From Eledone cirrhosa (Eukaryota): a DNA stretch of 64,000 nt. Position numbers and translations under genes: made by a program. Below, piece after piece: positions 2,800 to 53,442 of the stretch (position 1 is the stretch's first letter; each line of letters begins with the position of its first letter). The notes beneath the pieces were generated by a model. That model was not told the DNA's origin. It worked only from the letters and a program-made list of their open reading frames with translations, and ran no database searches. Location of the stretch: contig OZ024741.1 of assembly GCA_964016885.1 (NCBI GenBank), forward strand, positions 102,796,001 to 102,860,000, read 5' to 3'.

Positions 2800-2838
2800 G
2801 GTAAGTGGTCTTTCCCATCTTTTCCACTCCATTTCAAC

Positions 2839-5800: not shown

Positions 5801-6203
5801 GCAATGCGACAAAACCGTCCTGCACGCACTCGTCCAGTGTCCGAAAATTGCTGACTTGTGGGTTTATGTCGAACACCTGCTGTCGCGTGTAGGACGGATC
5901 CGGCTATCATCTGGGTCCATCGTGAGGATTGCCCCGCCCTCTTCCTTTAGCCGGGAAGGGCAGGCAGTTTTTATCTGTCTGGTGGCCATGGCGAAAGAGA
6001 TAGTATGGTGGACACGTTTGAAAGGGCTGAAGACGAGCACTTACCTCTTCGGTGATGCCCTGATTGACTTTTTCAAATTCCATTTGAAAAGGAAAATCAG
6101 AATAGAGAGGGAAGTGCTCTCTTCCCAGCATTTTGTTGAAAGATGGGTGAGAGAAGCAAGAATGACCCGAGTGAATGGGCCTACTCTGAGTATGTATCTG
6201 TAA
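2839..6203 (+). pseudogene. Tx1 ORF2: AP endonuclease + reverse transcriptase + C-terminal zinc finger, disrupted
   Basis: IGSINARGL, SETR, YLDRVF, TDHELV (APE); FRPITLLNTEFKILAK, LDQSKAFDRVDH, QGCPLS, YADNV (RT); CPRC...HALVQC. Confidence 0.92.
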
Positions 6204-6487: not shown

Positions 6488-9195
6488 CCTTCAATCTCAG
6501 TCATTGATGTTGGTTAACTGGAAAGTCCGTTGGAATGAATATCAAGCCACTACCTGCAGCCTCAGATATTCAGGACGTATCGGAGGGTTCTTGCTGTTCC
6601 AAGCGAGCATGCCTTTTGAAGCGTTCCAAAAAGCGTGAAGGGGCCGATTTTCTTTAACCATCCCTGGAAACTTTTGGAGAGGGTCCCCAGTGCGCCTATG
6701 ACAATCGGGATCACTTTGACTTCATGGCAGTTCCAAATCCTTTTCACCTCCCACTTTAGGTCCTGGTATCGGTTAATTTTCTCCCTCTCCTTCTCTTGCA
6801 CTCTCATGTCGAACGGGCAGGCCACATCCACAATCAGACACGATCTTTTTTCTTTGTCCACAACCACCAGGTCAGGTCTATTGTGTTCCAGTTTTTTGTC
6901 CGTCTGTATCCTAAAATCCCACAGCATCTTCACCTGATTGTTCTCCATCACCGCCTCCGGCCTATGCTCATACCATTTCTCAGAATGTGGTAAATTGTTT
7001 ACTTTGCACAGGTGCCAGTGGATCACCCTGCCCATCACATCGTGTCTCCAGCCCTTATAGTGGGTCTGGGCTAGGTGTTTACACTCGGACACAATGTGAG
7101 CCACAGTCTCCTCTATCTCTCCACAGATCCTGCACAGTGGGCTAGCCTCCTCCTTGTAAATATGGTGCTTCAACCACTTCGTTTTGAGGGCCTGCTCCTG
7201 CGCAGCCATTATCATTCCTTCTGTAGCCTTTTTGAGGTCTCCTCTTCTCAACCAGTTCCATGTCTGTGGATCTCTAAATTCAGTTTTCTCAAAGAAGGTA
7301 CTATGAAGGGATTTTCCCTTAAGGCTGCTCTTCCTCCTTGATGTTATTTCCTCCTTGGACATCCCCTGGCCTACTGTCCCCTCCTTCAGTACAGTTTTGA
7401 GCATTGGCTCCTTACTATAGGTCACGTATTTGTATAGGTTGTTTTTCTCCATCTGAACACAGTCCTCTATGCTGATAAGACCTCTTCCACCCTCAGATCT
7501 CCTTAGGTAGAGTCTATCGACATCACTCCTCTTGTGGAACATGTTGTAGATAGGCTATAGCTTCCTAGTCTTCCTATCCATTTCTTTTTGTTCAGCAACA
7601 TTCCATCTCAGAATTCCTGCACTGTACCTAATAATAGACACAGCTCGGGAATTTACTGCGCTTATGGCATTTCTGCTGTTCAGATGTGACTTCAATACGC
7701 TCCTTACTCTCCGAATGTATTCAGTTCTTAACAATTCCTTCATTTTTTTGTTCTTTATGCCATCAGCCTCCAGAACGCCCAAATACTTGTATCCTTCCTC
7801 AGAGTCAATTTCCTTTATCATCTCACCTGTTGGTATCTGGATCCCGCTACTTCTGCTCAACCTACCCCTCCTCATCACAATGACTCCACATTTACCAATA
7901 CCAAACTGCATACATATATCACTGCTGAAAATACGGACAGTGTCAACAAGCACATTCAACTCCTCTCACTTTTCCCGAAGAGCTTAAGATCGTCCATGAA
8001 GAGGAGGTGATTGATGGTAAGCTCTCCCCTTCCCAACTTGTATCCTGCTCTCACTTTTCGCAGCATAATGGTCAAGGGCATTAGGGCAAGGACAAACAAC
8101 AGAGGGGACAGGCTATCTCCCTGGAAGATACCTCTCTTGATCTTCACGCTTCCCAAGGATACTCCAGTTGATGTCAACTCTGTCTCCCAGGACCCCATAC
8201 TCCTGCCCAGCAACTGTCTGATGTTATCCGCCACCCTGAAGATCTCCAGGCTTTTGGTGATCCAAGAATGAGGCACCATGTCAAATGCCTTTCTGTAGTC
8301 TATCCATCCCATGGCAAGATCAGTGTGTCTCCTCCTGCAATTCCCCATTACCATCTTATCAATAAGTAATTGGTCCTTTGTACCACGTGACTTCTTTCGG
8401 CATCCTTTCTGTTCGTCCGGTAACAAGTTGTTTGTGTGGAGGTGATGGTAGATTTCCTCAGACACAATGCTCGTCAACAGTTTCCACATTACGGACAGAC
8501 ATGTGATAGGTCTATAGTTGGTAACATCATTACCCTTGATTCGGTCTTTCATTATCAGAACTGTGGTACCTTTTGTCAACCACTCTGGCACCTCACCCGA
8601 CACCAAGCAGTCATTGAACATGGCCGTCAGCTTCGGGTGGAGGGATGTTAAATGTTTAATCCAATACCCCTGCACACCATCTGGGCCTGGTGATTTCCAG
8701 TTGGTTAGTTTTTTGGCCTGCCCCTTAAGAGTTTCAACTGTGATACTCAAATCAGTTTGTTGTTGTGCCTGCTCACCGATCTCCCTCTGTACTGTCTCAA
8801 TCCACCCTGCCTGGGCATTATGTCTAACATCCTGTTCCCATATTCCTCTCCAGAATGTTTTAGTTTGTTCCGCCCCAGGGATCAAGTCGTTGCCTCTTTC
8901 TTTCCCCTCAAGCTGTCCAAACAGCATCTTCTGGTTGTTGTCGAACATGCGGTTCTGTTTATACTGACTGACTCTGTTCTCGTATCGCCTGATTTTTGCA
9001 CTCTTTGCTACAATGCGTTGCTTCAATTCCTCTATGATAATATTTAGCTTTTTACTCCTAGTTTTGTATTTTATTTCCAGTCTATTTTTAGTGCCTATGT
9101 TTTTTAGTGTCCCATTCAGTAGTGACTCAAGCTTTCCTATGTCATTTCTCATTTCCCCGATTTGCCCACTCAGTCGCTTCTTCCACCACGGCTCT
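6488..9195 (-). mobile_element. Dong/R4-clade RLE non-LTR retrotransposon, 5'-truncated, inserted in (TAA)n
   Basis: ORFs 7956..9152, 7555..7959 and 6562..7542: NYRPITCL, GIFQGDSLSPLLF, HLLFMDDLKLF, CRICGE..HIVSEC, RPDLVVVD..IVDVACP..K (RLE). (TAA)n at both ends. Confidence 0.93.
6562..9195 (-). pseudogene. RT-zinc knuckle-restriction-like endonuclease ORF with one frameshift and one stop
   Basis: Three consecutive ORF pieces join into one RT-RLE protein. Confidence 0.9.
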
Positions 9196-9196
9196 A

Positions 9197-9244
<48 letters not shown>
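9197..9244. repeat. (ATT)16 microsatellite
   Basis: read directly. Confidence 0.95.
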
Positions 9245-12011: not shown

Positions 12012-12525
12012 TAAAAAATGTATTTCTCTTTTCAACTCTGCCACCACCATCGCCGCCGCCACCACTAGCGACATAAACATTCAATTAATTTCAATAGGAA
12101 GTCTGAATTTTGACACCCCAGAACGACATCAGCCATACTCACTGAATCAGAACTATTGCTCCCTCTCCCATTTCTTGACCATTATCTTTTCTTTGGCACA
12201 AAACTGTCCATGACAAATCAATGATTGTGACAATGGCAATGAAGAACCCTCACACACGAGATGGCGCGAAAGTTGATGTACTTATTCACGTGACAGTCAT
12301 CAACCAACCAAATTACTTTTTTAAATTCCCCAGCAATTCGAACCAGTCTTTCCACATGAAACAGAAAGGACTTTCTAACACGAACCAGATGCGAGACACA
12401 CCACAAACCCTCCATCTCAATTCTACTTTTGAAAAGCATAAGAACTGTGAAACCGGTAAAGGAAATAAATAAATATTCTTAAAAAGACTCCAGTTGCATT
12501 TTCGATTTCTTTTTCTTATATGTAT
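11387..12525 (+). mobile_element. Penelope-like element 3' part: GIY-YIG endonuclease remnant, long 3' region, hammerhead
   Basis: Translation at about 11393-11450 gives YAIRCKGCNADYIGQTKLTLR (GIY-YIG). Lies between (TA)n tracts. 12330-12520 is homologous to 49380-49570(-). Confidence 0.75.
12425..12462 (+). ncRNA. Minimal type I hammerhead ribozyme, U3-A8 core variant (slightly decayed)
   Basis: actt TTGAAAA gcat aagaa ctgt GAAA ccgg TA aagg. Confidence 0.65.
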
Positions 12526-16462: not shown

Positions 16463-18530
16463 GTTACAACAGTGACATAACCAGGTACAACAGTTTCGTT
16501 GGGTTAGGGACGCCAAATCATTCAGCCTATCATAAGAAAAAGGAAAATTAGTATAAAGATAACCGCCGGAGGTTGAATTTGTTTTCCTTTCTGAATATAA
16601 CTTGTAAAAGACAGGTAATTTAGGAAATAGTTAAAAGATTTTGATAAAAATACGTAAGATCAAGGGATGTAACTCTTGCAAAACCACAGTCAAGGGCGAG
16701 GAAAAATAATTTATTTCTCAGCTAACTCAAAGAATCGAAATTCCTTGATATTCAAATTAGTCAGTAACACAAAGAAAATACATTCCTAGACTAGTTAGTC
16801 AGGTCTAAGCCATTTACTCAGAATATACTTCATTTCGTGTGGAGAGTGGCTAAAGCTGTTAAGCTAAATATTCAGGCAGTGTTTATCTGAAGCTAGTTGT
16901 TAGAGTATATTCCATTTTTCCAAGTTACAAAGGCGACAAAGTTTAGACCCATTAACATAGGGGGTAGCTCACTCTAATATGCTCCATTTGATGAAAAATC
17001 GTATCCCGTTATGCTAATAGCTCCATTCATGATTTGCGACCCGGGTGGCATGCTTTTTTGTTAGGAAATTCCTGAAATTGCTGATGGTTTTTGAACTGGC
17101 TCTCGGACATACCGACACAGGCTCAGGCTACAGTTTGGTGGTTGTAGTTGGTGAAGGTAACTTCTGCTGGATATATAACCGCCGGAGTGTTACACTGTTG
17201 GTCTAGTGGGCATGTTTCTGGTCTTCTTCATGAGCATCCGTACGGTGGAGAGCTTTTGCATTTGCCGGTGATGTAGGATTTAACGTTATTAGTGCATAAG
17301 TATCCTATTTTCACTGTATGGTGATTGAATATCTTTCGGTATTTATGGCCAACAAGGAAGTGGTGGTCTATGAGGGCTAGGAATTTTCATATTGAGTGAA
17401 AAAGGTGGTGCGAACCACATGACATCTTTATGTTTAGGTTTTTCTTTCTAGATGTAGAGCGGTGAACTGGAGAGTAAGTGTTTTTTTCAGAGAAGCCGTT
17501 GTTGCTTAGTGCTGCCCTATCAAAGATGGCTTTGCTAGAAGAGAGGTTGAATACCCTCTTACTAATGTTATTAATAAGACTTGTAAAAACTATAGGGTGG
17601 TGGCTAGACTCATTATTGATGTATTGAAGTTTCTCACTGGGTTGGGGGATTGGTCTATATGTGCGTGTCTGGAGGTCAAGTTAACGCCCATGAAGTTGAT
17701 ATTGGTGAGGCTGGTTGCTATCGTATTTTTAATCCTAGGCTGTTGAAGGTAGCAAATAGGTTTTTCCTAAAGGTGTCAAGGTGATGGCCCCTTTTATGGC
17801 TCGATAGTGTGAGACCGTCATCACGATATTGGCCCGTATGAAAGTCAGGCAATTTATTATGTATTGTATCTAGACTAAACAGGCCCACATCGATCGCACA
17901 TATCGGTGCTGTCAAATGATCCCATCGGCACATCGAATGGGTCACCGATAGTGGATTTCTTTTTATCCCTGAGTCGCCGTTGTTAAAGGGGAAGGTTTCC
18001 TTGCAGTGGGATATGACTAATCGATCTAATCAGTCTATGTTAGTGAATTTGCTAGCGAAATCAAGGGCCTTATCAAGTAAGTTCTGAATATCGAGGGGTA
18101 TAAGTCAATAATGTCAAATAATGTAAACCTAGCTTTCTTAGTGCGTTTGTGGACATTAAACAAATCTATAACTGTTTGACTATTATTCCACTGATTACGG
18201 TTGGACTGTTTTCTAATGGCTATATTAATTTTTCTAAGTATGTCTTTACTAACAAAACCTAACTCCGTTGTAGCAGGGTTTATGAGTCTGCAAGTTAGTT
18301 TATTCGCAAAGTCATTCTTATGTTCCTTAAGGGTAATATAAGCCTCTCTCCTAGCTAAGCACTCTAACTTATTATCTACTCTAAGGGTGGCGGCTATATC
18401 CTTCGCCTCAGTATTGATGGCATAATAGGTACCAGGGTCAGCTTCTTTGTATTCTGCCAGTATGGTTTTGTTAAGAAGTTGATTATAGGTAGACTGATCT
18501 AATTGATAATTGTTGATGGTTTTATCAGAT
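16463..18530 (-). mobile_element. Penelope-like element (RT + GIY-YIG region + pLTR), degenerate
   Basis: Minus-strand translation: KEHKNDFANKLTCRLINPATTELG, FDIIDLYP, GQYRDDGL, IKWSILE. 3' end abuts (TA)n. Confidence 0.85.
16482..16529 (-). ncRNA. Hammerhead-like motif with one extra core nucleotide, in the PLE pLTR
   Basis: Minus strand: tagg CTGAATGA t ttgg-loop-ccaa c GAAA ctgttg TA cctg. Confidence 0.55.
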
Positions 18531-18750
18531 AGGACGAAATATGTATATATTCAAAATAGGGGCGCACAGGATATAAACTATGGGAAAAGCAGCGGAAAGA
18601 CGGATAGTCCTATTACCCAGTGGACCTACCTCAGGAAATCACTACGCTTTCGGTTAATAAAGGTTGATGCCACTCATTCCAGTGTACATTGGGACATAAC
18701 AAAACAGGTAGAGATAAGTTATGCGTTTAGACGAATTACACAACTATAGA

Positions 18751-31000: not shown

Positions 31001-32374
31001 TGATAAAATACCGACATTGTTTACTATGTTCATAACATCACATCATGATATTTCATATCACTTCCTTGCAAACTGTGATTTGATGTTTATTAATATACAG
31101 AAGATCACAATATGCTTTGTATCGTTATTGAAATTGTGTCTGTTCAATCCATATGTCGCTAAACTTCCAGGGCATTAAACAGATCACAGAAAATGGTAAG
31201 TTGATAAGATTCACCGTTTTAATCAACGCTATCGCTGGACAACTATTCATATAACTTTTAAAGACAAGAAAGGTAATTTTGACTGATTAAAGAGACTATA
31301 CAGTTCCCACTGGTTTGTCTAAAATTATTATTAATATAATCCGCACGAAGCTACCCTCTAGGTAGACTGGAAATGAACGATGCAAGAATATGTAATTTAA
31401 TACCATTACTCCTTTCAAATTCCGAATTAAGGTAAAAGCTATTGTTTCTGAAATTGCACACTACGTTTATATAAGTTGTTTGACCTCCAGCGTTTCCGAC
31501 GACGAGTGCTCCCGCTGACTCATTCAATGGAACTACCAGCTAATGAACATGTAACTCGCTGCGTTTAATTCATTCATTCATTCAGCCATACAATTGAAGG
31601 TAAGCTACACTCTAATATGTATCTATGCTTATGTCTAAATATATGCGTTCCTTCTGACTTTATTCTAACTCCCTTACGGTTGAATAAACCTTAGGCGGTA
31701 ACTAACTGCTTCTTGTAGCAATGAACTTACTGGCCACCAGTCTACCCTTCACAACACTTCTATCTTGATCGCTAGCTACCTGATAATTTTCACCCCTTTT
31801 CGAATTTGTTACTGGCAGCAATCACTTTGGAAAAACATCGCTCCTAACTGAGGGAGTCTCTTGATAAGCTTGAAACCTTGTGGATAATGCAACGATTAAA
31901 CATTTCTACAAAGCACAAGCGAAATTGTCGACTGTCAGGGCTAGAGGAATATTGGTAAACATTTATCTATTATTTCTTCAAACTTATATTTTAAACTTAG
32001 CTCCGTTTAATTGATTATTTATTTAATTTCTACAGACTAAGAAGAAAAATTAGGTAAATTTTATCTGCCTGTTCTTCAAACATATAATTATATATATATA
32101 TATATTATTCAAAATATTAATAAATGAAAAATATTCTCATAACCAAATATATATATTTTATTATACATATTTCAAAGGTACAATGGTATTTCATTACGTT
32201 TTCATCAGATAAAATATATGAGAGATTGGATATGCGACATACCGCTAAGGTTTTGATTATTCAATTCACCAACCCTCAACATTTTTATACCACAAATAAT
32301 ATAACAAACTTAGAGAAGAAGAGGCCGTAAAGCAAGGTAGAAATATAGAAGGGGGGTTGAAAGGGAAGATGTGA

Positions 32375-32503
32375 AGAAAAAAGAAAAAAGAAAAAAGAAA
32401 AAAGAAAAAAGAAAAAAGAAAAAAGAAAAAAGAAAAAAGAAAAAAGAAAAAAGAAAAAAGAAAAAAGAAAAAAGAAAAAAGAAAAAAGAAAAAAGAAAAA
32501 AAG
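32375..32503. repeat. (GAAAAAA)n heptamer tandem repeat inside the PLE 5' region
   Basis: read directly. Confidence 0.9.
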
Positions 32504-35280
32504 AAGGGAAATAAATAAAAGAAGAAAATGGATGATGCAGAGAGAAAAGAAGGGAAATAAATAAAAGAAGAAAAGGGAATATGCGGAGCGAAAAGAAGGG
32601 AAATAAAGAAAAGGAAGAAAAGGAAAGGGAAAGGATAAAATAAAGGGGAGAATAAAATACCCTAGACAAAATTCAAAATATATATCCCTCTAGGATATAC
32701 CATTACCATCAAATGATGAATATATGAGACAGCTTATAGAGAAATCTAATTATTCCATAAGAAGACTGCGGTGGCGTGCTTTCCACTTTGAAAACAACGA
32801 AAAAGTTGATAAGAAAAACACCAATCATAATTTTGATCTTATTTTTAGATGTAGAAAAAATCCCCCATATAATAAATTCCTGGCTAATTTTGAAAATGAA
32901 ATCATAAATATAATACGAAACATTAAATTTTAAAAAAAACATATAGAGGCCAGGAATACCTCAGAGGCCTAAAAGATAAAATTGATGACATGCAAAAAAC
33001 AAATAAGATATTAGTTAAATCGGATAAAACGAACAACCAAAATGGGATGGAAAAAGTAAAATATAATAATTTAATTTTAAAAGAACTGAGGAAAAACTAT
33101 AAAAAGGCCTCAAGCGAGGATTCATCGGACATAAAAGAGGAAGCATATAAAATTATCACCAACCTAAGAATCGAGCGTAAGACAGAACCTTTCATACTAA
33201 AACAGCCGAGGATTAATATGAAAGACCATAAAAAACTTTGAGGAAGATTTACTAGTAAGACTCATAGCACCTTCTAAATCTGATCTAGGAATCATTAGCA
33301 AGAATATAATAGATAGGATTATACCAACACTTAAATTGAAATCACAAATAAATCTATGGAAAAGATTGGTTCATAAATATTAAACATAAAAATAATTATA
33401 AGTTTATTCAAATGGATATAGCCAGTTATTATTCCTCGATAACTCCCAATCTATTAAATAAGGCGCTGTCATATGCATACAAACACACATACCTATCTAG
33501 TGAGGAGATAAATATTATATTAACTGCAAGGTGAACTTTGATAGATTTTAATAATGATCTTTGGACTAGGGCTGGGTTCTTCGGACTCAGCCCAAGTCAC
33601 AGATCTAGTGGGCATTTTTATCCTTAACATGGTAAATAGAAAATTGCCGGAGATTACCGGAGGTTTGTATAGGGACGACATACTATTTATTGTAGAGAAA
33701 CATACAATAGTTAATTAAATAGAGTAAAGAAAGCAATTATAGAATTTTTAAAAAATTACAACCTGAAATTAGAAATAGAAAATAATAATAAAATAGTTAA
33801 TTTTTTGGATGTGACTCTAAATCTTAACTCAGGCATTTATTACCCTTTCCACAAAGTTAATGAGAACTTAAATTATGTTAGTTTTTATTCTAATCATCCT
33901 AAAAGTGTTAAGAATGCGATAGTCAACAAAGAATATCCAGGCTCTCTGCTAATAGATCTATATTTAATAGTAAGGCTATATATTATAACGAAGCGCTACA
34001 TAAAGCTGGATATAACAATAACATTGAGTATATAGATAAACATACTGAAATCCATCAAAATAAAATTAATTATAATCATAATAATCATCATAAAAAGGAA
34101 TATAAACACAACTGGATGAATAAATCGAAGAAAAAAGTAAGAACTAGATCTATAATTTGGTATTCACCGCCAGCATCCTTAGGTATTAAGACACCTGTAG
34201 CACATTTATTTTTTAAAGCTTTAGATAAATGCTTCCCTAGATCTCATAAATATTACCATATCTTCAATAGACACACAGTTAAACATTCTTACTCAACTAC
34301 TATGAATATTGCTCAAAATATAGCAAAAATAAATAATAAGAATCTAAAATCAGACCAACCTCTACTAAGCAATAATAATAATAATAATATATTAATAGAA
34401 ATAACAATAATAATAGTCTAAACATGAATAATAGTATAACGCCTTTAAATAACAATGCGAATAGTATAATACCTGTAAAATAACAGTCAGAATAAATGTA
34501 ATTGTAGAAATAGGTCCGAATGCCCTTTACAAAATAATTGCTTTGATAAAAATATTGTATATAAATGTACCATTAAGGCAAATGGTAATATATATAATTA
34601 CATCTAAAATAAAGAACGTTGGTATAATCACAGACATACTTTTAATAGGCCGGATAAAAAATGTTCAACTTCACTTTCACAATTAGTATGGTCTTTAAAA
34701 GACAATAACATTAAATACTCCATCTCTTGGAGAAAATTACGTATGCTACCCCCTAATCTCAGAATTTTGCCATCTTTGTAATGAGGAAATACTTCACATA
34801 ATCACAAATTTAATCAACAAAAAGAATAAATTATTTAGTAGTTGTCATCATAAAATTGGTAAGACTTTCCAGACAATGTACCAGTTCCAAAAAAATAAGG
34901 ACAAATAACATCATGAATATATGTAAATTTTGACTAATTAAAATAATAATTTATAGATATTTATATGTAATAGCATAACCTCATTGAGAGTTTTTTATCC
35001 TACGAATTGATTATTTTAGCTCAATATTTAATTAGACATCAATTAAGATATATACACTAGATACGTTAAGGTTCTTAAAATATCGTTGGACGCGAGAGAA
35101 GAGATTCCCTCTAAGTTATAAAATGTTTTACTTTGTAAAAGAGTTATCTTCCTTGTGTTTACATTGTCCGTAAAAATTGTTATTAGCTTGGGAAAAACAT
35201 ATATAAAATATAGATTACTACCACTACAGGAATTGAATAATACCTTAGCGGTATGTCGCATATCCAATCTCTCATATATG

Positions 35281-35350
35281 TTATCTGATGAAAACGTACT
35301 GAAACAGATACGTGTATCATTATACAGATACGTGTATCATTAACGTACCT
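35281..35350 (+). ncRNA. Degenerate hammerhead-like motif in the PLE pLTR (mirrored at 32176-32212(-) and 14997-15033(-))
   Basis: CTGATGA aaacgtact GAAA cag...; a three-copy consensus suggests GAAA cagtactg TA. Stems I and II pair poorly, and this copy has an 18-nt duplication in stem III. Confidence 0.4.
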
Positions 35351-36236
35351 TTGAAATATGTATAATAAAATATATATTTTGGTTATGAGAATATTTTTCA
35401 TTTATTAATATTTTGAATAATATAAAATATTCCAGATACATTACTGTCGAGTGCTTCTAATCTATAGTAAAATTGTATTCGTTGAATAATCAACGAACCA
35501 TATAAACTTATATATATATAATTTTTTCAGAACTGCGAAATTATACCGGTGACTTGCTAACCCGGATTATTGGGCTTAATCTACATTTCAAACTTTGTAA
35601 AGAGCACTAACACGACACTATGATAAAATATACATCACTCTAGCGAGAGTTTTCCTTTTCTCCCGTTTGCACAGCCAACACTCCAAACAAATACACGTTA
35701 AATAATACATATTTATACACATAAAAGCGTATATATCAATATATATAGTGAGTATAAAAGCCTCGTTCTACAATCGCAAACAAATTAGAAAACCTCAATT
35801 ATACGTATATTGGATGTTTTAATAAATACTGTATTGTGCACAAATATTTCTTACTTAATTAATTACGTCATACTTGAATGCACATTATATAAATTAGAGT
35901 GACTATTTTAGTTAAGTTCCAGTTTTCTGATGATAGTCCAACTACGCTATATCTTGATTTTTTTCAGTGTATGAATAGAATAGTAATGCTTTTTGTATTC
36001 AATTGTGTTTTCAGAGTGATAAGCTGAATGTAAAAGGGAGTTTGATTCAAAGGAGATTTGACTGCTATTTCTAAAAGGCATGTGAATTCTTATAACCGCT
36101 CTTGTAATTTCCTGTCTCTGTCTTTAACAGAGATAGAAGTGTCTCTCAAATGAAGGATGCGTTAGTTAGCACCTATGTTCTTTCTGATTGAGTCAAGCTA
36201 TCTTATACAATAATATACATATGTGAAAATATTGAA

Positions 36237-36358
<122 letters not shown>

Positions 36359-36812
36359 TGGGGGAATAGAGAGAGAGAGAGTTTCAAAACAATCAATCAT
36401 CTGTAATCCATAATTCAGGCAATAATCTGATTTCGATTATTTATTTGTGTAAGTTCAATCGTGCAAGGATATAATAAGATAGCAACAACCATATCGATTA
36501 CAATATTTTGATTAATATATAAATCTTCTAGCATGTGTTGTATATATCCGATTTAGAATAGGGACGCTATAAGAGATGACAAAAATTGTTGGCGCCAGAA
36601 AACCATTAGATTGTAAAACTACGATGAGCATATAATCTTCATGGGGCGCGCAAGGCTAACTCTTGATTTGGCTTGAAAAATAGCCTCAAAATGCTTCTTG
36701 TTGCTGTCTTGTGGCGTTTAAATAAAACAAATTTTTCACATTTCTCACCATTACCTAAAGTGCCAATCTCAGATTTTGAAAACTTTCATTGTAAATTAGA
36801 CATCATATAGAC

Positions 36813-39019
36813 CAGTGGTCACCAAACTACGGCCCGCGGGCCGGATCAGGCCCGCGACGTCAGGTCATCAGGCCCGCCGACGGTACGTGCATTTGCGTGA
36901 TAAAACGGATGGAACACGAGATGTTTCTAATTCAATGTCTTTTTTATTTTCAGATCCCGTTTTCTTCATCCTTTATTATGGCTACGAAGAAAAGAAAAGT
37001 GGACGCCGAGTGTCGCGTTTTCAATGAAGAATGGGGAGTAAAGTACTTCTTTGTGGAAACAAAGGACCAGAAAGCTAGTTGCGTGGTATGCAGCGAAAGT
37101 GTTGCCGTTTTGAAAGAGTACAATCTTCGGCGTCACTATGAAACAAAACATTTATCAACATATTCAAAGTTTTCAGGAAAGTTACGCTCTGAGAAATATG
37201 AGTGCATGAAACGTGGTTTAGAAACTCCAAGAAATCTCTTCACGAGAAAGTTTGCTGAAAATGAATCTGTCACTCGTACAAGTTACAAAATAGTGCATAA
37301 GTTGGCAGAGCGAGGAAAACCGTTTACTGATGGCAACTTCATCAAAAGTGTATGATGGAAGCAGCAAATGACTTGTGTCCTGAGAAAGCCGATTTGTTTG
37401 GAAGTATCAGCCTTTCGGCAAGTTCCGTTGTGCGGAGAACAGAAGAACTTGGAGAGAACATAGTGCTACAGATACGTGAGAAAGCTAGGAGCTTGTTGTG
37501 GTATTCTCTGGTGCTGGATGAGTCTACTGATCTCTCGAGTACGTCACAACTTCTCGTGTTCATTCGTGTGTCAATTTGGACTTTCAGCTAACGGAAGAGT
37601 TGGCATCCGTTTCCTGCAGGCATGGAACAACAACTGGAAAAGACATTTTCATGGAAGAGCAGAAAACTTTGCAAGACTATAACCTTCAGTGGAATCAGCT
37701 TCGAGGTGTTACAGTTGATGGAGGAAAAAACATGGCTGGAGTGAGGAAGGGTCTGGTCGGGCAGATCAGGACTCAGTTGGAAGATTTGCAAATTCTGGGC
37801 GCTCTGTTCATACACTGTATCATACATCAGCAAGCACTCTGTGGAAAAGACTTTGATATTTCTTTTTTTCTGAAACCAGTCGTTTCTGTTGTGTACTTCA
37901 TTCGGGGAAATGCACTCAATCACCGTCAGTTCCAGGCTTTTCTTGAAGAAATTGATTCTGATTTCTGTGACTTGCCTTATCACACAGCAGTGAAGTGGCT
38001 CAGCTGCGGTAAAGTCCTGTTTCGTTTTTACAAGCTCCGAAACGAAATAGATGTTTTTCTCACTGAAAAAGATAGAGCTGATCCACAGCTGTCAGATCCT
38101 ACCTGGCTGTCAAAGTTGTCATTTTTGGTCGACATCACATCCCACATGAATGAACTGAAAGATTTCGGAGAAAGCTGTCATTGTTTGAAGCACAAGTGGA
38201 AGGAGAAAACTTCTCTTATTTTCACTGTTGCAAAGAGTTTTGCGCTACAATTGCTGAAGATGTCAACCTCGATTTTCCTAAAAAGATTATTCGTGACTTA
38301 AAGAAGCATTTTTTGAGAGATTTTGAGATCTCGACAGAATTGAGAGTGACATTCTTCTGTTCAAGAATCCGTTTGATTGTAACCTTGATGATGTGCCAGT
38401 TGAACTACAGTTGGAGCTCATTGATTTGCAAGCAAATGACTTGTTGAAAGAGAAGCACAGAGAAGGAAAACTTGTTGAATTTTACCGCTTCTTACCTAAT
38501 GTTGAGTTTCAGAAATTGAAGAAATTTGCCGCTGGTTTGGAACAACTTATGTCTGTGAGCAAACATTTTCAAAAATGAAGTATGTGAAGTCAACACATCG
38601 AACGAGATTGACTGATGAACATTTGAAAGCAATTCTCTTCATTGGATGCAACAATTCCAAACCAAAAATTGATGATATCTTGAAAGTCAAACGTCAGTTT
38701 CACAAATCTCACTAACCTTTTTTTGCTGCTTAGTTTGTAAGATTCAGATATGTGCACACTAGGTCTGATGTAACTATATTTTTGCTAACATCGCCTTCTT
38801 TGATTACTTTTTAGTAAATAAATATGTTGGTTGTCTTTGTTTTTTGTGCATTGCACGCCACTCACCCATGATTAACATGGAATGCTAAACGTAGTGTTTC
38901 GTCTTTTTTCCCAGAGCTTTCGTTCTGGCTTGCAAGTATTGAACAGAATGATTATGCGGCCCGCACTCGTCATTCTTTCAGTTTTTCGGCCCACTGTGAA
39001 AAAAGTTTGGTGACCCCTG
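36813..39019 (+). mobile_element. Complete hAT DNA transposon (Buster/Charlie/SPIN-like), 2207 bp
   Basis: TIRs cagtggtcaccaaact / agtttggtgacccctg; perfect 8-bp TSD atatagac (36805-36812 and 39020-39027) with central TA; subterminal ggcccg repeats. Confidence 0.96.
36978..38714 (+). pseudogene. hAT transposase (GTF2IRD2/SPIN-like), frameshifted
   Basis: MATKKRKVDAECRVFNEEW, CVVC..KEYNLRRHYETKH, LDESTD, TVDGGKNM, HCIIHQQALC, VKWLS, LQLELIDLQ. Confidence 0.93.
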
Positions 39020-43830: not shown

Positions 43831-46800
43831 TTTCAGATCATTATATGGAAGGTCATCTTCAGAGGCTAAGAGAAAGAAAACACAGCGATCTGAAGAAAGT
43901 GAAGAAGTTCGGCATGCACGTCTAGCTGCTAGCAGAGCCCAAACAGCTTTAGCACGAACACACCATTTGGATGAAAGGGAACAAAGGACTGCTGTTACAC
44001 GAGAACAACAAATTAAGGAACAGCAGCAAATCAGACAAAATGCTAATCAAGCACATCGTTTCTACTGCCCGAGCAGGAGAACAAGCCACAAGTAAAATGA
44101 ACTGGCTGATGGGTGCTTTTTATTATGACCCCCAAAAGGGCTACAGCAGTAATCCACAAATCAACATTGGGAAAATGAACAAATGCTGCCAGTATTGTGG
44201 TGCCAAGAAGTGGGCAGCAGAAACACCAAGTCTATGCTGCTCAAAAGGCAAAGTGAGCCTTAAAACAATACAAGAACCACCTGAATTTCTGAAGAATTTG
44301 CCCCTTCAGCACACACCAGAAGCACGACACTTCAATAAATACATCATAAAATATAATTCTGCCTTTCAAATTACATCTTTTGGGGCTGACAGGAATGTGA
44401 TTGACTTTGGATTCTGTACAACTTATAAAATTCAGGGACAGTGTTACCACTTAATGGGTGGCCTTCTGCCACTTTCACAGAAGCCTCACAAATTTGTGCA
44501 GGTTTACTTCATGGATGGAAATGAAACTCAGGCATAAAAAAGATGTACCAATGTCCATGGTGGATTGCAGTTCTACATAGTCATAAAGTTACAAGAAATG
44601 CTTCACCAACATCACATGTACGTCAGTATATTTAAATATGCACTGGAGCATATGAACAACACCAGAGATCGTAAAATCATCATTAGGGCAGACAAACGCC
44701 CAGATTCAGAACATGAACGCAGATTCAATGCACCTGTCATTGATGAAGTTGCAATCATAATGGTTGATGAACAGCATGAACGACGTGACATTGTTTTGCA
44801 AAAACAAAGTGGACATTTGGAGCGAATTTGTGAAACTCATAGAGCCTATGATTCACTCCAATATCCGCTCATCTTGTGCAATGGTCAAGATGGATATCAT
44901 TTTCAGCTACGGCAGATCAGCCCAGGAACGGGACAAGAAACTCGCCGATCAATCAGCTGCAAAGAATTCTATGCTTATCATTTCATGGTACGTGATCACT
45001 TCAACCAAGTTCTGCGTTTCAAAGAAGTAACCAGCCAGTTCATGCCAAAATTGAAACAGAAAAATTGGGTTTTCTGCGAAGGAATCAAACTAAGTTGAGG
45101 GCAGATAAATACATCCACCTTAGAGATGCCATCAATTCTGATGTTGACCCAAGAAATATTGGCCAGCCAGTCATACTACCATCAAGCTTCACGGGAGGAC
45201 CATGTTACATGCATGAACCTACGCAAGATCTAATGGCCTATGTCAGAAAATTTGGTCGGTCAGATCGCTTCATTATATTTACATGCAACTCAAACTGGTC
45301 AGAAATATCAAATGAATTATTTCAAAATCAAAAACCAAAGGATCGACATGACCTCATTGCTCGGGTTTCCCATGAAAAGCAAAAGAAAAACTAAAAGAAG
45401 GAAGTATCTTTGGTGAGCTTAGTGCTTGGATGACCACTATTGAGTGGCAGACGAGAGGTCTTCCTCACTCTCACACATTAATCTGGTGCAAGGAGAAGAT
45501 AAGACCAGATGATGCTGATAAGATCATTTCAGCAGAGTTGCCTGATAAAGGTGGTGATCCAGAGCTCTTTGAAACCATCAAGTCCAAACTCATTCATGGT
45601 CCATGTGGAGTCATCAATCCAGCCTCTCCCTGCATGAAAAATTAAAAATGCAGCAAACATTATCCTAGAGTTTTTATTCGGGAAACTAGTACTGACAATA
45701 ATGGATACCCCCTATATCGTAGGCGTAGACCAGAACATGGAGGCAATACTGCAAGCCTAACAGTTCGAGGAGAGGAGCTGACCATAAACAATCAGTGGGT
45801 CGTCCCACAACAAATTGTTGTGTAAACTTTTAAAAGCTGATATCAATGTTGAGTATTGCAGCTCCGTCAAGGCAATCCTATATGTCATAAAATATATCAA
45901 CAAGGGCAGTGACATGGCTACATTTATTACTGACAAAGAACTCAATGATGGTGGGCTGGATGAGGTCAAATGGTATCAAACAGGTCGATACATCTCCAGC
46001 AATGAAGCTATCTGGCGAATCTTTAGATTTGATATCCATGAACGCCACCCAACAGTGATCAACCTCGCAGTCCATCTGGAAAATGGACAGAGAGTGTACT
46101 TCAATGAGATCACTGCTCATCAGTTGGTACAAGCATCACATGACACTACACTAACTGCTTTCTTTAAACTCTGCCAGAATGATGAATTTGCTCGATCCCT
46201 CCTATATGCTGAAGTCCCAACATACTACACCTGGACCAATTGCAAGACCTGGAATCGAAGAAAGCAGGGTCATTTAGTGGAAGGTCACGAAGTCAAGTCA
46301 AGTGATGCTATTGGGCGTGTTTACAATGTCCATCCCAACAACAGAGAATGTTTTTTATTTACGGCTACTTCTGCATACTGTTCGAAGACCAACGTCATTT
46401 GAGGATCTTAGGTGCTTCAGAGGAAGGGAGTGCGCAACATACCAAGAAGCATGTAAACAGCATGGACTCCTGCATGACAATAGACACTGGAAGAAGTGCC
46501 TAGAAGAAGCAGCAATCACTCAAGTAGCCAGTAAAATAAGACACTTATTTGCTATTATGCTTACTGAATGTGGAATTGATGAAGCTCATCTACTCTAGCA
46601 GGAGTACAAAAGCAATATGTCGGACGACTATCTACACCTAGCTCGAAGACATCATGGCAATATGTATATGGAATATACCGCCAGGATTTACAATCAAGCT
46701 CTCTGTGACCTGTCCCATCGAGTTCAGGCAATGAATAGCACATTAGCTAACTGCGGCATGCCAGAGCCAGATGAAGAAATGGAAGTAGCACAAGACATTT

Positions 46801-48211
46801 TTCAGGAGACAAACTACGATATTCAAGCATTGCGTAAGTTTGTGGATGAAAATGAACCTCGATTGATGGATGACCAGAAATACGCTTATCACATCATCGA
46901 AAACATTCAAAATGACAGGGGATGACTTTTGTTCATCGATGCTCCTGCTGGCATATCAAGGCATTCCTCATAAACCTCCTGCTTGCAAAAGTTCGCCAAA
47001 AGCAACATATTGCCCTTGCTGTGACTTCAAGTGGCATTGCAGCAACACTTCTGGATGGAGGAACAACTGCACACTCCATGTTTAAGCTGCCCATAGATCT
47101 CACACGGCATGAACAATCTTTTTGCAACATCAAGAACTCACCCAAGGGCAAGCTTCTGCAAACATGAAAGATGATAATTTGGGATTAAGCTACTATAAGC
47201 CATAAGGGAGCTATTGAAGCTTTGGACCGGACGATAAGGGATCTGAGAGAAAATAGTTGCATAATGGGAGGAGTGACAATGGTTCTTGCTAGTGATTTCA
47301 GACAAACTCTGCCTGTAATTCTTCGAGGGACTCGAGCTGATCAGGTCAATGCCTGTCTGAAAACATCCTATATCTGGCCCCACTTTCAGCTGCTGAGCCA
47401 TACAACCAACATGCGAGTGCACTTAACTGGTGACGAAGGTGTCAGTGAGTTTGTCATCCAACTACTTAAATTGGGAAATGGACTTCTTGAAAAGGACTCC
47501 AATGACCATATTCAGTTGCCATTTGGCCATATCATTGACACAGAACAAGAACTGATTGCCAGAGTGTTTCCAAACATTCAGACCAGGCAATGTGATCCGA
47601 ATTGGCTCTGTGAACGAGCAATCTTAGCACCTAAAAATGTTGTTGTGAAAGAAATCAACAGAAGGCTGCTGGAGATGTTACCGGGAGAGAAAATATGCTA
47701 CAAATCAGTTGACACAATCACTTCTCAAGACCAGGTTGTAAACTATCCAACTGAATTTTTGAACAGTCTTGAACGAGCGGGAATTCCTCCACACAACCTG
47801 ATACTGAAGCTTGGAGCATCGGTTATGCTACTTCGCAATCTGGATCCTCCAAAACTATGTAATGGTACAAGGCTCATCATAAAAAATATGATGTCCAATG
47901 TTCTAGAAGCTGCAATCATGTCAGGAAAATTTGCTTTTGACAATTGTTTCATTCCCAGAATACTGAAGCCAGCTGATTTGCCATTTGAATTTCAAAGACT
48001 TCAATTTCCGATCAGGCTCAGTTTTGCCATGACCATTAATACATCTCAAGGGCAATCATTGAAAGTTGTTGGGTTGAATCTGGCAGATCCTGTCTTTTCA
48101 CATGGTCAACTCTATGTTGGCACAACAAGGGTTGGGAACCCTGATTGTCTCTTAATTGTGGCACCACAGGGCAAAACCAAGAATGTTGTTTATCCAGAAG
48201 CTTTGGAATGA
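43830..48211 (+). pseudogene. Helitron Rep (HUH)/Pif1-like helicase, multiply disrupted
   Basis: [112 protein letters not shown]. Confidence 0.95.
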
Positions 48212-48672
48212 GCAATGTCGTAATTCCTCATTCAATGACCATACACACAGATCCTAATTCCTTAGTCATGTAGTTTGCAAGGAATTCTGAAGCCGCAAAT
48301 TTACTGCATGGTGTTACTTTGGAAGAATATGCAGGCATTCCCGGGTACCTCTGCTATATAAAGTAGTATAAGTGAGGACTTTGTTGGGTAGAAATAGCAG
48401 CCAAATTTCCTTAAAATCCCACCTTACTTTCTCAGGTATGTATATATGTATGAAGCAAAAAGGAATGGTTCTATCTGATAACTCGATCTACTAGAAATAT
48501 GAGCTTTTAAATTAGTCTTTACGTGTTGTTTGAATTTCAGAGGTTCAGATTGAGCAAAAAAGAAAACTAAATGTATTTTTTGGGGTCATGCCCTTTTCAC
48601 TGACAACATACCTAATGATTCATCTATGAATAAAGCATCATATGTGCTGACTGTAATAGGGAGCAGTATTCA

Positions 48673-49282
48673 AAAAATCACCACTGGAAAAAAATAATAT
48701 TTTTATCTAAATGATTTACTTTGACCAAACGGCAATAAATATTCTGCTATAATTCCTACTTTGCTTAAAATTCAGCACTCATATTTGAATGATCAAATAT
48801 TTTGTAATGTGTGCCAAATATATTGTAAGTTTCATAAAATACCCGGGTATCACCGGGTAGTTCAGCTAGTCTTCTATAAATGTCATTCCCACGGCGTTTC
48901 GTTGCTGCGAAATGTTGAGCTTCACATATAATATTTGTTTACATTTTCAAAACGCTGTTTGATTCACCTCCTTGAACCGATCAAAGAAAATTCGTTCGGG
49001 ATTCTAGGGTGTTGTCTCTTTCTGGAGAAAGCGTGTGAGATAGCAGTATGAATCAATCAAATCCTCCACAGAACTTGGTATTTTATTTAAAACCCCAGAT
49101 ACGCAAGAAAGTGGAAGTGCAAAGTTAACATCGCTGGGATTTGAACTCAGAACGTAGAGTGACTGAACATATACAAGGCATTTATATCGGCCGCCTTAAT
49201 GGTTATTTCATTTCAGTTCGTCATGGATAGCTACGAAAGTTGGGGTAAGAAAGAGAGAGCTTTGGAGTGAGACAGAGTTAGG

Positions 49283-49312
<30 letters not shown>
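48673..49312 (+). repeat. Left arm of a ~620-bp young inverted duplication (Helitron 3' end + flank + SINE fragment)
   Basis: Reverse complement of 51299-51924 with few substitutions. Confidence 0.93.
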
Positions 49313-49319
<7 letters not shown>

Positions 49320-49748
49320 GTGAGGTTTTTTTTACAAAATGAAAAATAACCGAGGTGTCTTACACGAGTGAAAGTATAAAGAAAAAGAGATGAAATCGAA
49401 AATGCAACTGGAGTCTTATTTTTTTTTTAAATATATATATTTATTTGGTTCCTTTACCGGTTTCGCAGTTCTTCTGCTTTTCAAAAGGTGAGTTGAGATG
49501 GAGGTTCTGTGGTTTTTCTCACATCTGGTTGGTCTCTGAATGTTACTTGTTTTATATGGAAAAAGTGGCTCGAAATGCCAGGTTTTTCGAGAAGTAATTT
49601 GATTGGTTTGTCAATAATTATAATAAATTTCGCGCCAGTTCGCGTTACAATAGTTCTTCAAATAAGAGGGGGGGTTGTCGCAGGTTGTTTTTTCATATAT
49701 GAGTGTTTGAATTTCTTTTTACTTGAAAAAAGGAGGCTCACGAAGGCT

Positions 49749-49750
<2 letters not shown>
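49313..49750 (-). mobile_element. PLE pLTR fragment of the 11387-12525 family
   Basis: Homologous to 12330-12520 in reverse; bounded by (TA)n. Confidence 0.75.
49451..49488 (-). ncRNA. Minimal type I hammerhead, U3-A8 core variant, all stems intact
   Basis: Minus strand: cctt TTGAAAA gcag aagaa ctgc GAAA ccgg TA aagg. Confidence 0.8.
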
Positions 49751-49792
<42 letters not shown>

Positions 49793-50101
49793 ACCAACCA
49801 TATGCCAATGTGGTTCAATGGCAGGTTAATAAATTAACGAGCCAGAACATATATATAATCAAGGTTTAGCAAGCAAATAAAAAAAGTTTCAAAATAAATT
49901 TTAAAAGATTAACTTTACTCACTATGGTTCCCTTTACCGAATCGGTTTCTAGTCTCAAAAATAAATGGACAGTCCTTACGGCATCCATTGCAAAGATAAA
50001 CTCTCGTCAGCACATCATTTATTTTCTTCTCGGGAATAATTTTGAATAGCGCAAGTTCGTAATTTGAACTCGGGAATTTTATATTCTCCGAGTGAAAAGA
50101 T

Positions 50102-50185
50102 CCTTCTGACGAGAGTTTATCTTTGCAATGGATGCCGTAAGGACTGTCCATTTATTTTTGAGACTCGAAACCGATTCGGTAAAGG
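50102..50185 (+). ncRNA. Type I hammerhead ribozyme, canonical core (unit 1)
   Basis: cctt CTGACGA gagttt..aatgga..cc-gtaa-gg..tccatt..agactc GAAA ccg-att-cgg TA aagg; predicted cut after GUA at 50181. Confidence 0.9.
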
Positions 50186-50583
50186 TAACCATAGTGAGTA
50201 AAGTTAATTTTTTTAAATTTATTTTGAAACTTTTCTTATTTGCTAAACCTTGATTATATATGTTCTGGCTCGTTAATTTATTAACCTGCCATTGAACCAC
50301 ATTGGCATATGGTTGGACAATAAATGTGTCCCTAAGCGCTTTGAGCGTGTAGGGATATATACTTTATTATTATTCTCCTCTTGGTCGAGAAAAAAATTTG
50401 GTCGTTCTGACTGCTGATAGTTATAGTGGTAGTAGACTGACCTCCCTGACTTTGCTTCTAACTTTACACACGGCACTTGATGGAATTGCTTCCACATCAT
50501 TTATTCTCATCTCGGGAACAATTTTGAATTGCGCCAGTTCGTAATTTGAACTCGGGAATTTTATATTCTCCTAGTGAAAAGAT

Positions 50584-50667
50584 CCTTTTGACGAGAGTTT
50601 ATCTTTGCAATGGATGCCGTAAGGACTGTCCATTTATTTTTGAGACTCGAAACCGATTCGGTAAAGG
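50584..50667 (+). ncRNA. Type I hammerhead (unit 2; C3>U)
   Basis: cctt TTGACGA ... GAAA ccgattcgg TA aagg. Confidence 0.8.
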
Positions 50668-51066
50668 TAACCATAGTGAGTAAAGTTAATTTTTTAAAAT
50701 TTATTTTGAAACTTTTTCTTATTTGCTAAACCTTGATTATATATGTTCTGGCTCGTTAATTTATTAACCTACCATTGAACCACATTGGCATATGGTTGGA
50801 CAATACATGTGTCCCTAAGCGCTTTGAGCGTGTAGGGATATATACTTTATTATTATTCTCCTCTTGGTCGAGAAAAAAATTTGGTCGTTCTGACTGCTGA
50901 TAGTTATAGTAGTAGTAGACTGACCTCCCTGACTTTGCTTCTATCTTTACACACGGCACTTGACGGAATTGCTTCCACATCATTTATTCTCATCTCGGGA
51001 ACAATTTTGAATAGCGCCAGTTCGTAATTTGAACTCGGGAATTATATATTCTCCGAGTGAAAAGAT

Positions 51067-51150
51067 CCTTTTGACGAGAGTTTATCTTTGCAATGGATGC
51101 CGTAAGGACTGTCCATTTATTTTTGAGACTCGAAACCGATTCGGTAAAGG
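51067..51150 (+). ncRNA. Type I hammerhead (unit 3; C3>U)
   Basis: cctt TTGACGA ... GAAA ccgattcgg TA aagg. Confidence 0.8.
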
Positions 51151-51298
51151 TAACCATAGTGAGTAAAGTTAATTTTTTTAAATTTATTTTGAAACTTTTT
51201 CTTATTTGCTAAACCTTGATTATATATGTTCTGGCTCGTTAATTTATTAACCTGCCATTGAACCACATTGGCATATGGTTGGACAATACATGTGTCCC

Positions 51299-51924
51299 TA
51301 TATATATATATCACCCTAACTCTGTCTCACTCCAAAGCTCTCTCTCTCTTACCCCAACTTTAGTAGCTATCCATGACGAGCTGAAATGAAATAACCGTTA
51401 AGGCGGCCGATATAAATGCCTTGTATATGTTCAGTCACTATACGTTCTGAGTTCAAATCCCAGCGATGTTAACTTTGCACTTCCACTTTCTTGCGTATCT
51501 GGGGTTTTAAATAAAATACCAAGTTCTGTGGAGGATTTGATTGATTCATACTGCTATCTCACACGCTTTCTCCAGAAAGAGACAACACCCTAGAATCCCG
51601 AACGAATTTTCTTTGATCGGTTCAAGGAGCTGAACCAAACAGCGTTTTGAAAATGTAAACAAATATTATATGTAAAGCTCGAAATGTCGCAAGTACGAAA
51701 CGCCGTGGGAATGAAATTTATAGAAGACTAGCTGAACTACCCGGTGATACCCGGGTATTTTATGAAACTTACAATATATTTGGCACACATTACAAAATAT
51801 TTGATCATTCAAATATGAGTGCTGAATTTTAAGCAAAGTAGGAATTATAGCAGAATATTTATTGCCGTTTGGTCAAAGTAAATCATTTAGATAAAAATAT
51901 TATTTTTTTCCAGTGGTAATTTTT
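51299..51924 (-). repeat. Right arm of the ~620-bp inverted duplication, carrying a second, inverted Helitron terminus
   Basis: actagctgaactacccggtgatacccgggta at about 51728-51758. Confidence 0.93.
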
Positions 51925-51930
51925 ATATAC

Positions 51931-53442
<1,512 letters not shown>

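Follow-up and report, generated by a model that had tools for sequence, protein, structure and literature searches.

The closest described systems to the locus analyzed here are the non-LTR retrozymes of metazoans and the Penelope-like elements (PLEs). The retrozymes are characterized by self-cleaving RNA expressed as linear and circular monomers. PLE insertions are described as having partial tandem copies, a 5' copy in inverted orientation, and a tail of 30 to 40 bp that is confined to one end; the same account lists Hydra-1_Obim, an element from Octopus, with (TA)n as its target (PMC8557442). For Poseidon PAc of Anolis, the tail is reported to be the stretch between two internal reverse transcriptase (RT) start sites downstream of the hammerhead ribozyme, and both target strands are described as cut and extended in vitro (PMC11167929). 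The works cited here leave open how retrozymes return to genomes and why PLE insertions have their tail on one side and carry an inverted arm. The retrozyme class itself is already published, and what appears to be new is a family in Eledone cirrhosa together with the evidence from its two ends.

The window (the whole stretch of E. cirrhosa DNA analyzed, 64,000 nucleotides) probably holds a damaged copy of a non-LTR retrozyme whose 483-nt RNA would be cut by paired hammerheads, likely circularized, and likely pasted into (TA)n by a PLE enzyme, probably one of the Hydra clade. The tandem array at 50011 to 51300 has a period of 483 with 2.7 copies (2.67 units) and 97% matches, the spacing being 482 and then 483 (Table 1). 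This bears out an earlier note on this DNA, which had described about 2.7 head-to-tail units of 482 to 483 bp, but the span given there, 49791 to 51300, holds only in part, as 49791 to 50010 is an inverted partial unit. The repeat unit, numbered here from window position 50493, is 483 nt long with a GC content of 0.37. It was rightly called non-coding: it has no ORF longer than 78 codons, the longest stop-free frame being 94 codons and the longest ATG frame 78. The claimed (TA)n flanks are present on both sides, but the right one has only about six repeats, after which come a stretch of upstream host DNA duplicated in inverse orientation and then a longer TA run. The inverted unit begins only at core base C3 and is therefore missing the 5' strand of stem I, and the base of its stem II has changed from C to A; judged from its sequence, it is not expected to form a working hammerhead.

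Table 1. Features of the candidate retrozyme locus, in window coordinates
Feature	Position	Strand	Basis or remark
(TA)n run, likely left half of target site	49750..49790	.	Repeat finding
Inverted unit, truncated at its 5' end and spanning unit positions 96 to about 312	49791..50010	-	94% identical
Unit 1, 482 bp	50011..50492	+	
Hairpin upstream of hammerhead; two compensatory pairs among subfamilies	50069..50092	+	
Type I hammerhead 1 with canonical C3 core; cut predicted after 50181	50102..50185	+	
Family end site A in unit 1, TA-like	50255..50261	+	Locus mapping
Hairpin H1, 2-nt 3' bulge, immediately 3' of site A	50262..50297	+	Subfamily comparison
Family end site B in unit 1, behind covarying hairpin	50361..50370	+	Locus mapping
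Unit 2, 483 bp; site A 50744, H1 50745-50780, site B 50844-50853	50493..50975	+	
Hammerhead 2 with U3.G8 core; cut predicted after 50663	50584..50667	+	
Partial unit 3, positions 1-325; stops past site A and short of site B, at a TA dinucleotide	50976..51300	+	
Hammerhead 3 with U3.G8 core; cut predicted after 51146	51067..51150	+	
Inverted duplicate of host DNA 48673-49298, 97.4%, 626 bp; opens with a short TA run	51299..51924	-	
(TA)n run, likely right half of target site by inferred role	51924..52001	.	Repeat finding

A hammerhead descriptor applied to both strands of the 64-kb window gave five matches, three in the array and two in a separate Penelope-like element. The claim of one full type I hammerhead per unit stands for the stems, the core, the GUA site, and the GUAA loop, but C3 is present in unit 1 only. 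Units 2 and 3 carry U3 opposite G8, a state that is rare in the family (2 of 134 listed loci). A U.G wobble at the C3-G8 pair probably slows hammerhead cleavage. The pair is described as covarying to U3-A8 in nature (PMC3088659), and a literature search found no published measurements of the effect of a U3.G8 core. As the sequence stands, a monomer from this locus would require a U3 hammerhead for its 3' cut. The hairpin reported just upstream of the hammerhead is present. The strand order is that of a type I hammerhead and not of the type III hammerheads inside LTRs by which plant LTR retrozymes are defined. Metazoan non-LTR retrozymes have no LTR, PBS, or PPT; no LTR layout was found at the mapped loci, and the one 8-nt PBS motif sought is absent from the unit. 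Searches against Rfam gave no hammerhead match at the gathering score or at E values up to 10, and the models were probably defeated by the 54-nt stem II. An Rfam match to MIR4208 (70.6 bits, with a gathering score of 140) was rejected as the fold-back of the inverted arm.

Further copies of the monomer are many and dispersed across the genome, and they lie in (TA)n. Exact motifs of 23 to 25 nt had 649, 1463, and 1739 matches in the 3.0-Gb genome, which are lower bounds on copy number, and reversed controls had 0; on these counts, the family comprises well over a thousand copies in the TA microsatellites of the genome. A genome search with one unit gave 2443 candidates, 40 of which were scored. 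In all, 197 distinct loci were mapped after overlapping fetches and one segmental duplicate had been dropped. This sample is non-random: part of it consists of the best matches to two queries, the second of which ends at site A and favors loci with A ends, and the other loci comprise the places that head the contig C1 listings for two motifs and, for the third motif, 20 chosen from its first 100 places with preference for arrays and for places new to the sample. The 114 whole units form six subfamilies and one singleton, with consensus identities of 75 to 93%, and family copies lie 0.4 to 5% from their subfamily consensus.

Compensatory changes in these sequences suggest that the hammerhead helices are under selection as structure. 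Within the subfamily of the window copy, a stem II pair changes from UA to CG in 28 loci, a stem I pair makes the same change in 5, and the pair at the base of stem II changes from GC to AU in 7; these counts cover related sequences and not independent events, and other consensus helices include broken pairs. Comparison of the six subfamilies shows further double changes, both in the hammerhead helices and in two hairpins, one lying upstream of the hammerhead and one before site B. The circular monomer folds with a z score of -5.3 against 60 shuffles. The 25 nt located 3' of site A, which form the start of hairpin H1, are invariant in the six subfamilies; H1 has no covariation of its own because its variable positions are unpaired. 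A conserved GNRA loop on stem II was rejected as a family feature, with the loop reading GCAA in 57 cases, GUAA in 32, and GUAU in 29.

Stem III bears on how the RNA might be cut. The unit had been expected to cleave as a monomer through a stable stem III, a claim left unsupported by a stem that is palindromic or nearly so: four of the six subfamilies have a perfectly palindromic stem III, with centers of CG, CG, AT, and TA, and the stem is centered on ATT in the other two, including that of the window, whose copy is a one-mismatch palindrome. A short palindromic stem III is described as the mark of hammerheads acting as dimers (PMC4209133). The predicted homoduplex reaches -14 to -20 kcal/mol, versus -0.9 to -2.0 kcal/mol for the hairpin; for the ATT form, these values are -14.3 for the duplex and -2.0 for a 3-bp hairpin. 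Paired cleavage is likely rather than single cleavage, since stem III is palindromic in four subfamilies, and some single cleavage may occur in the ATT form, which permits the 3-bp hairpin. In three folding windows, the hammerhead fold lies 1.5 to 5.3 kcal/mol above the minimum-energy fold and stem I has a probability near zero. Such a disfavored active fold would, as modeled, fit a circle that stays closed and would fit a poor ribozyme equally well. In vitro, one of nine frog retrozyme dimers is described as cleaving (bioRxiv 10.64898/2026.07.22.740005).

The 3' ends of the arms are largely restricted to two places in the unit. The 283 arms at the 197 loci have 3' ends at site A in 178 cases, at site B in 79, and elsewhere in 26, so that A and B together account for 257 of 283. 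Site A lies near unit position 252, 81 nt past the consensus cut, and site B lies at 350 to 367, about 190 nt past the cut; a TA run follows 244 of the 257 A or B ends. Among 71 head-to-head pairs, 58 combine A with B, none combine A with A or B with B, and 13 have a non-canonical end (one odd end in 12 pairs and two in the remaining pair, the window locus). Before the end-biased samples were joined, 44 of 53 inverted pairs were A+B, and simple arithmetic puts the A+B share expected under independent choice of sites at half at most. Single-arm loci have 100 A, 9 B, and 5 other ends. The 5' ends of arms are scattered around the unit, with a mean arm length of 365 nt. A target-site duplication, which in metazoan non-LTR retrozymes exceeds 4 bp when present, is not legible at these loci, whose targets are (TA)n runs. 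The insertions match the hallmarks of Penelope-like insertion (PMC8557442), including 5' truncation, partial tandem copies, a 5' copy in inverted orientation, a one-ended tail, and a microsatellite target. The class proposed in the earlier note, a non-LTR retrozyme moved by Penelope-like enzymes, is thus well supported by the dispersed family and its PLE-type ends. Other hammerhead families at the fetched loci are split in the same way; in inverted pairs, for instance, their TA runs lie 49 and 138, 43 and 132, and 47 and 98 nt past the cut. A literature search found no strand-paired two-site priming rule.

The window locus does not itself follow the A+B rule, since it is the sole inverted pair of the 71 in which both ends are non-canonical, near positions 312 and 325, each at a TA. 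Divergence at non-repetitive positions is about 2 to 3% alike for the array units, the inverted arm, and the duplicated host DNA, which fits one complex event. In such an event, the ends would stem from minor TA words used for priming or from trimming at a later time, and copying would have switched to neighboring DNA. Full-length copies of the 626-bp host segment were limited to the pair flanking the array among the 40 scored matches, and inverted duplication of host flanks was rejected as part of the mechanism, as it occurs at 3 of the 197 loci, the window locus included. Units 2 and 3 of the array have a derived C>T change in common, for which gene conversion is the simplest guess. The window copy is probably a damaged but ordinary family member with two weakened cores and aberrant ends and a poor source of new copies; the evidence on mechanism lies at the level of the family and not in this copy.

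Most arms (84 of 106) run across the cut site, 18 of them twice, and the junction there is clean, with A171 present in 231 of 236 passes, which indicates a template that was sealed or uncut at that point. Template jumping from cut 5' ends is not favored, as indels at the junction are not in excess. Subfamily-diagnostic columns mismatch at 5.5% within an array and 5.1% between the two arms of a locus, against backgrounds of 4.0% and 3.6%, and at 43.4% between loci; the presence of the same alleles in both arms does not separate one RNA from two RNAs of one source. One array of 63, that at L007, changes its subfamily haplotype from one pass to another at five diagnostic columns, which may reflect a template switch. 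The longest arm described here, 4272 nt or 8.8 units with an A end and an inverted B arm, is at L280 (G000:C1:82114500-82122500, 1752-6187), a very young insertion of another subfamily than that of the window, in which 8 units show 2 differences among them. The figure for L288 is 1 mismatch in 897. As read from the sequence, the near-identical units of L280 favor rolling-circle copying, although uniform arrays would also result if a young master array gave a long transcript that stayed uncut, and L280 could alternatively be a later tandem expansion or an assembly error. A template of that kind, a long linear tandem transcript left mostly uncut and trimmed only occasionally by the hammerhead, would keep the same family and the same PLE mobilizer with no need of a circle. 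There is a precedent in Poseidon PAc, for which the hammerhead is described as dispensable in vitro, with hammerhead mutants inserting normally and uncut, unprocessed RNA being used (PMC11167929), and the modeled disfavor of the active fold points the same way. Arms also stop within 6 nt of the cut site in 10 of 112 passes versus about 4 expected (P of about 0.007), as would be produced by cut 5' ends, yet this signal is weak, because other 12-nt bins hold as many 5' ends (10 versus 8). Moreover, arms averaging 365 nt should shorten the element at each round, yet six subfamilies keep the whole unit and multi-unit arms, and position-specific differences between units show no excess of inheritance (96 same-direction versus 126 opposite pairs). 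The linear template is accordingly considered unlikely, with a modest chance of being correct, and the circle is taken as the most likely template because a linear cycle with such arms should erode.

The possibility that the unit is the ordinary pLTR of a coding PLE duplicated locally, raised in the earlier note as one case that would overturn its reading, does not agree with the mapped loci, where arms circle the whole 483-nt unit in register. These in-register arms at independent loci, with scattered 5' ends and no fixed foreign junction, indicate that the unit is not a pLTR. Local amplification by unequal crossover, whether of a pLTR, of another end fragment of a coding PLE, or of a satellite, is very improbable. 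Retrozymes have been argued to derive from pLTRs and possibly to amplify locally (bioRxiv 10.64898/2026.07.22.740005), and the C>T change and the inverted host duplication are signs of DNA-level events at this locus; against this stand the dispersed copies, which number in the hundreds, are flanked by TA, and have fixed 3' but scattered 5' ends, and a unit that closes on itself, with no ORF junction and no coding-element similarity. Local amplification is largely refuted, and remote pLTR ancestry is possible. The unit contains no ORF with an RT and a GIY-YIG domain and so is not an autonomous Penelope-like element. Candidate partners are present in the genome as coding PLEs with a Hydra-type CxCX5C linker and DKT motif, assigned to the Hydra clade by these motifs; Pfam did not recognize the Hydra-type ORFs. 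We take other elements to be long-ORF elements of the Neptune type and one Poseidon-like element, names that follow their motifs. The Hydra-type coding elements have two ends about 90 nt apart with the same bulged hairpin past the first. An H1 descriptor, composed after the examples had been viewed, placed H1 directly past the first end in four families, three of them of the Hydra type, and not there in several others; it had 12 matches on both strands of the window, 3 of them in the array. No sequence homology of the family to a coding element was found by blastn and tblastx at 66 PLE-ORF loci, a small sample of the genome's PLEs, and that comparison gave nothing beyond one nested family copy and some AT-rich matches that were weak and short. 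An apparent hybrid at L261, with a Hydra-type hammerhead upstream of H1, was rejected since it resembles a nested insertion. A Neptune-, Naiad-, or Poseidon-clade enzyme in place of Hydra, a rival for the partner only, is unlikely though far from negligible. Neptune-type ORFs of 938 and 1096 codons are present, elements with such long ORFs likewise use TA and two ends, and one family is young, as the arms of a Neptune-type palindrome with a minimal hammerhead (L246, 1260-4592) are 99.7% identical. However, the only Neptune family examined has its ends, and hence a tail, at 35 to 40 nt, whereas the 90- to 110-nt tail and the bulged hairpin match the Hydra type, the H1 comparison covering Hydra-type and other non-Neptune families. 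The Hydra clade is the better guess for the mobilizing partner.

With a circular template, movement of the family may proceed as follows. A tandem genomic copy would be transcribed, two hammerheads would pair through the palindromic stem III to release a monomer, and a host ligase would close the monomer into a circle. A borrowed PLE RT-endonuclease would then bind the structured A-B stretch and nick (TA)n on both strands, with one nick priming at A and the other at B. From its start site, each cDNA would be extended backward around the RNA and past the cut site, over lengths that vary and reach 8.8 turns, and the two cDNAs would be joined head to head. A more specific version, in which a dimer of the Hydra enzyme reads the protein-free RNA circle, the bulged hairpin setting A and the second hairpin setting B with strictly one of each per insertion, is put forward tentatively and could well be wrong. 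If it is true, the tail and the inverted arm of PLEs would be the trace left when priming is coordinated between the two strands, without a separate second-strand step, and the 483-nt RNA would be a structural mimic with which the two-site rule and rolling-circle reverse transcription could be rebuilt in vitro. The family offers a short substrate with hundreds of readable insertions, strict A+B pairing, and an 8.8-turn insertion, and H1 is a candidate RNA signal common to the family and to coding elements.

The window contains several other elements. A decayed PLE of the Hydra type at 32090-35510 has two inverted arms, an ORF remnant at 33912-34421, and the two remaining descriptor matches (32158-32212, minus strand, and 35281-35368, plus strand); its minus arm ends about 55 to 60 nt past the cut and its plus arm about 145 nt past it, with H1 at 35429. 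A Helitron-like element at 43953-48869 includes a PIF1 helicase frame (47189-48211) and a hairpin with a CTAG end near 48840-48869, its 3' end lying within the inverted duplication. The segment at 49314-49750 is part of a very high-copy repeat with a second place at 12254-12517. A TA-flanked direct repeat at 51994-52861 (241 bp, period 627, 98% identical) has no long ORF and no ordinary plus-strand hammerhead and resembles another partial-tandem element. Judged by motifs, 18035-18550 on the minus strand is presumably an RT-like remnant of another Penelope-like family, and 2800-6203, 6562-9197, and 36795-38301 presumably hold broken non-LTR retrotransposon frames on both strands together with a DNA-transposase-like frame. 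Elsewhere in the genome, the flanks of L042, L103, L176, L092, L106, and L241 contain several unrelated hammerhead-bearing families, mostly TA linked.

The E. cirrhosa family resembles the metazoan non-LTR retrozymes, as those are described (PMC7229834; bioRxiv 10.64898/2026.07.22.740005), in having short non-coding tandem units with one type I hammerhead each, a GC content below 50% (37% here), thousands of dispersed copies, a highly self-paired monomer, and PLEs as the proposed mobilizer. The large size remarked on for the unit holds against the 150 to 450 bp of one account (PMC7229834) and not against the 51 to 972 bp of the other (bioRxiv 10.64898/2026.07.22.740005). The family differs in its 54-nt stem II arm, in being known from DNA alone, and in having no pLTR homologue among the sequences found; its fixed two-site ends with inverted arms are mapped here and do not figure in those two descriptions of retrozymes. 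No cephalopod retrozyme was found in the literature consulted, and Repbase, Dfam, or preprint supplements may list the family. Newt satellite 2 and axolotl retrozymes likewise have a palindromic loop III, with dimer cleavage favored there, but are described as 330 to 350 nt long with conserved loop 1-loop 2 contacts (PMC7229834).

Hydra-clade PLEs, as described, have in common with the family a (TA)n target, a hammerhead near the 3' end, partial tandems, an inverted 5'-truncated arm, and a tail at one end only (PMC8557442). In contrast to them, the family has no ORF and no detectable sequence similarity; its tail is about 110 nt, versus 30 to 40 bp for PLEs, and its stem III has GC pairs whereas that of PLEs is given as an AT-rich minimal palindrome (PMC8557442). 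Non-autonomous Chlamys elements such as MRC1 are also non-coding PLE parasites with multicopy head-to-tail insertions, but they share their 3' end with an autonomous partner, and their clade is described as having no canonical hammerheads (PMC8557442). In Poseidon PAc, a coding element, the first start lies about 85 to 92 nt past the cut, compared with 81 nt in the family, and the starts fall in an AC-rich loop with no homology to the target, whereas the family sites are TA-like (PMC11167929). For PAc, no difference in start site between the strands is reported in vitro (PMC11167929), whereas canonical two-armed insertions of the E. cirrhosa family strictly pair A with B.
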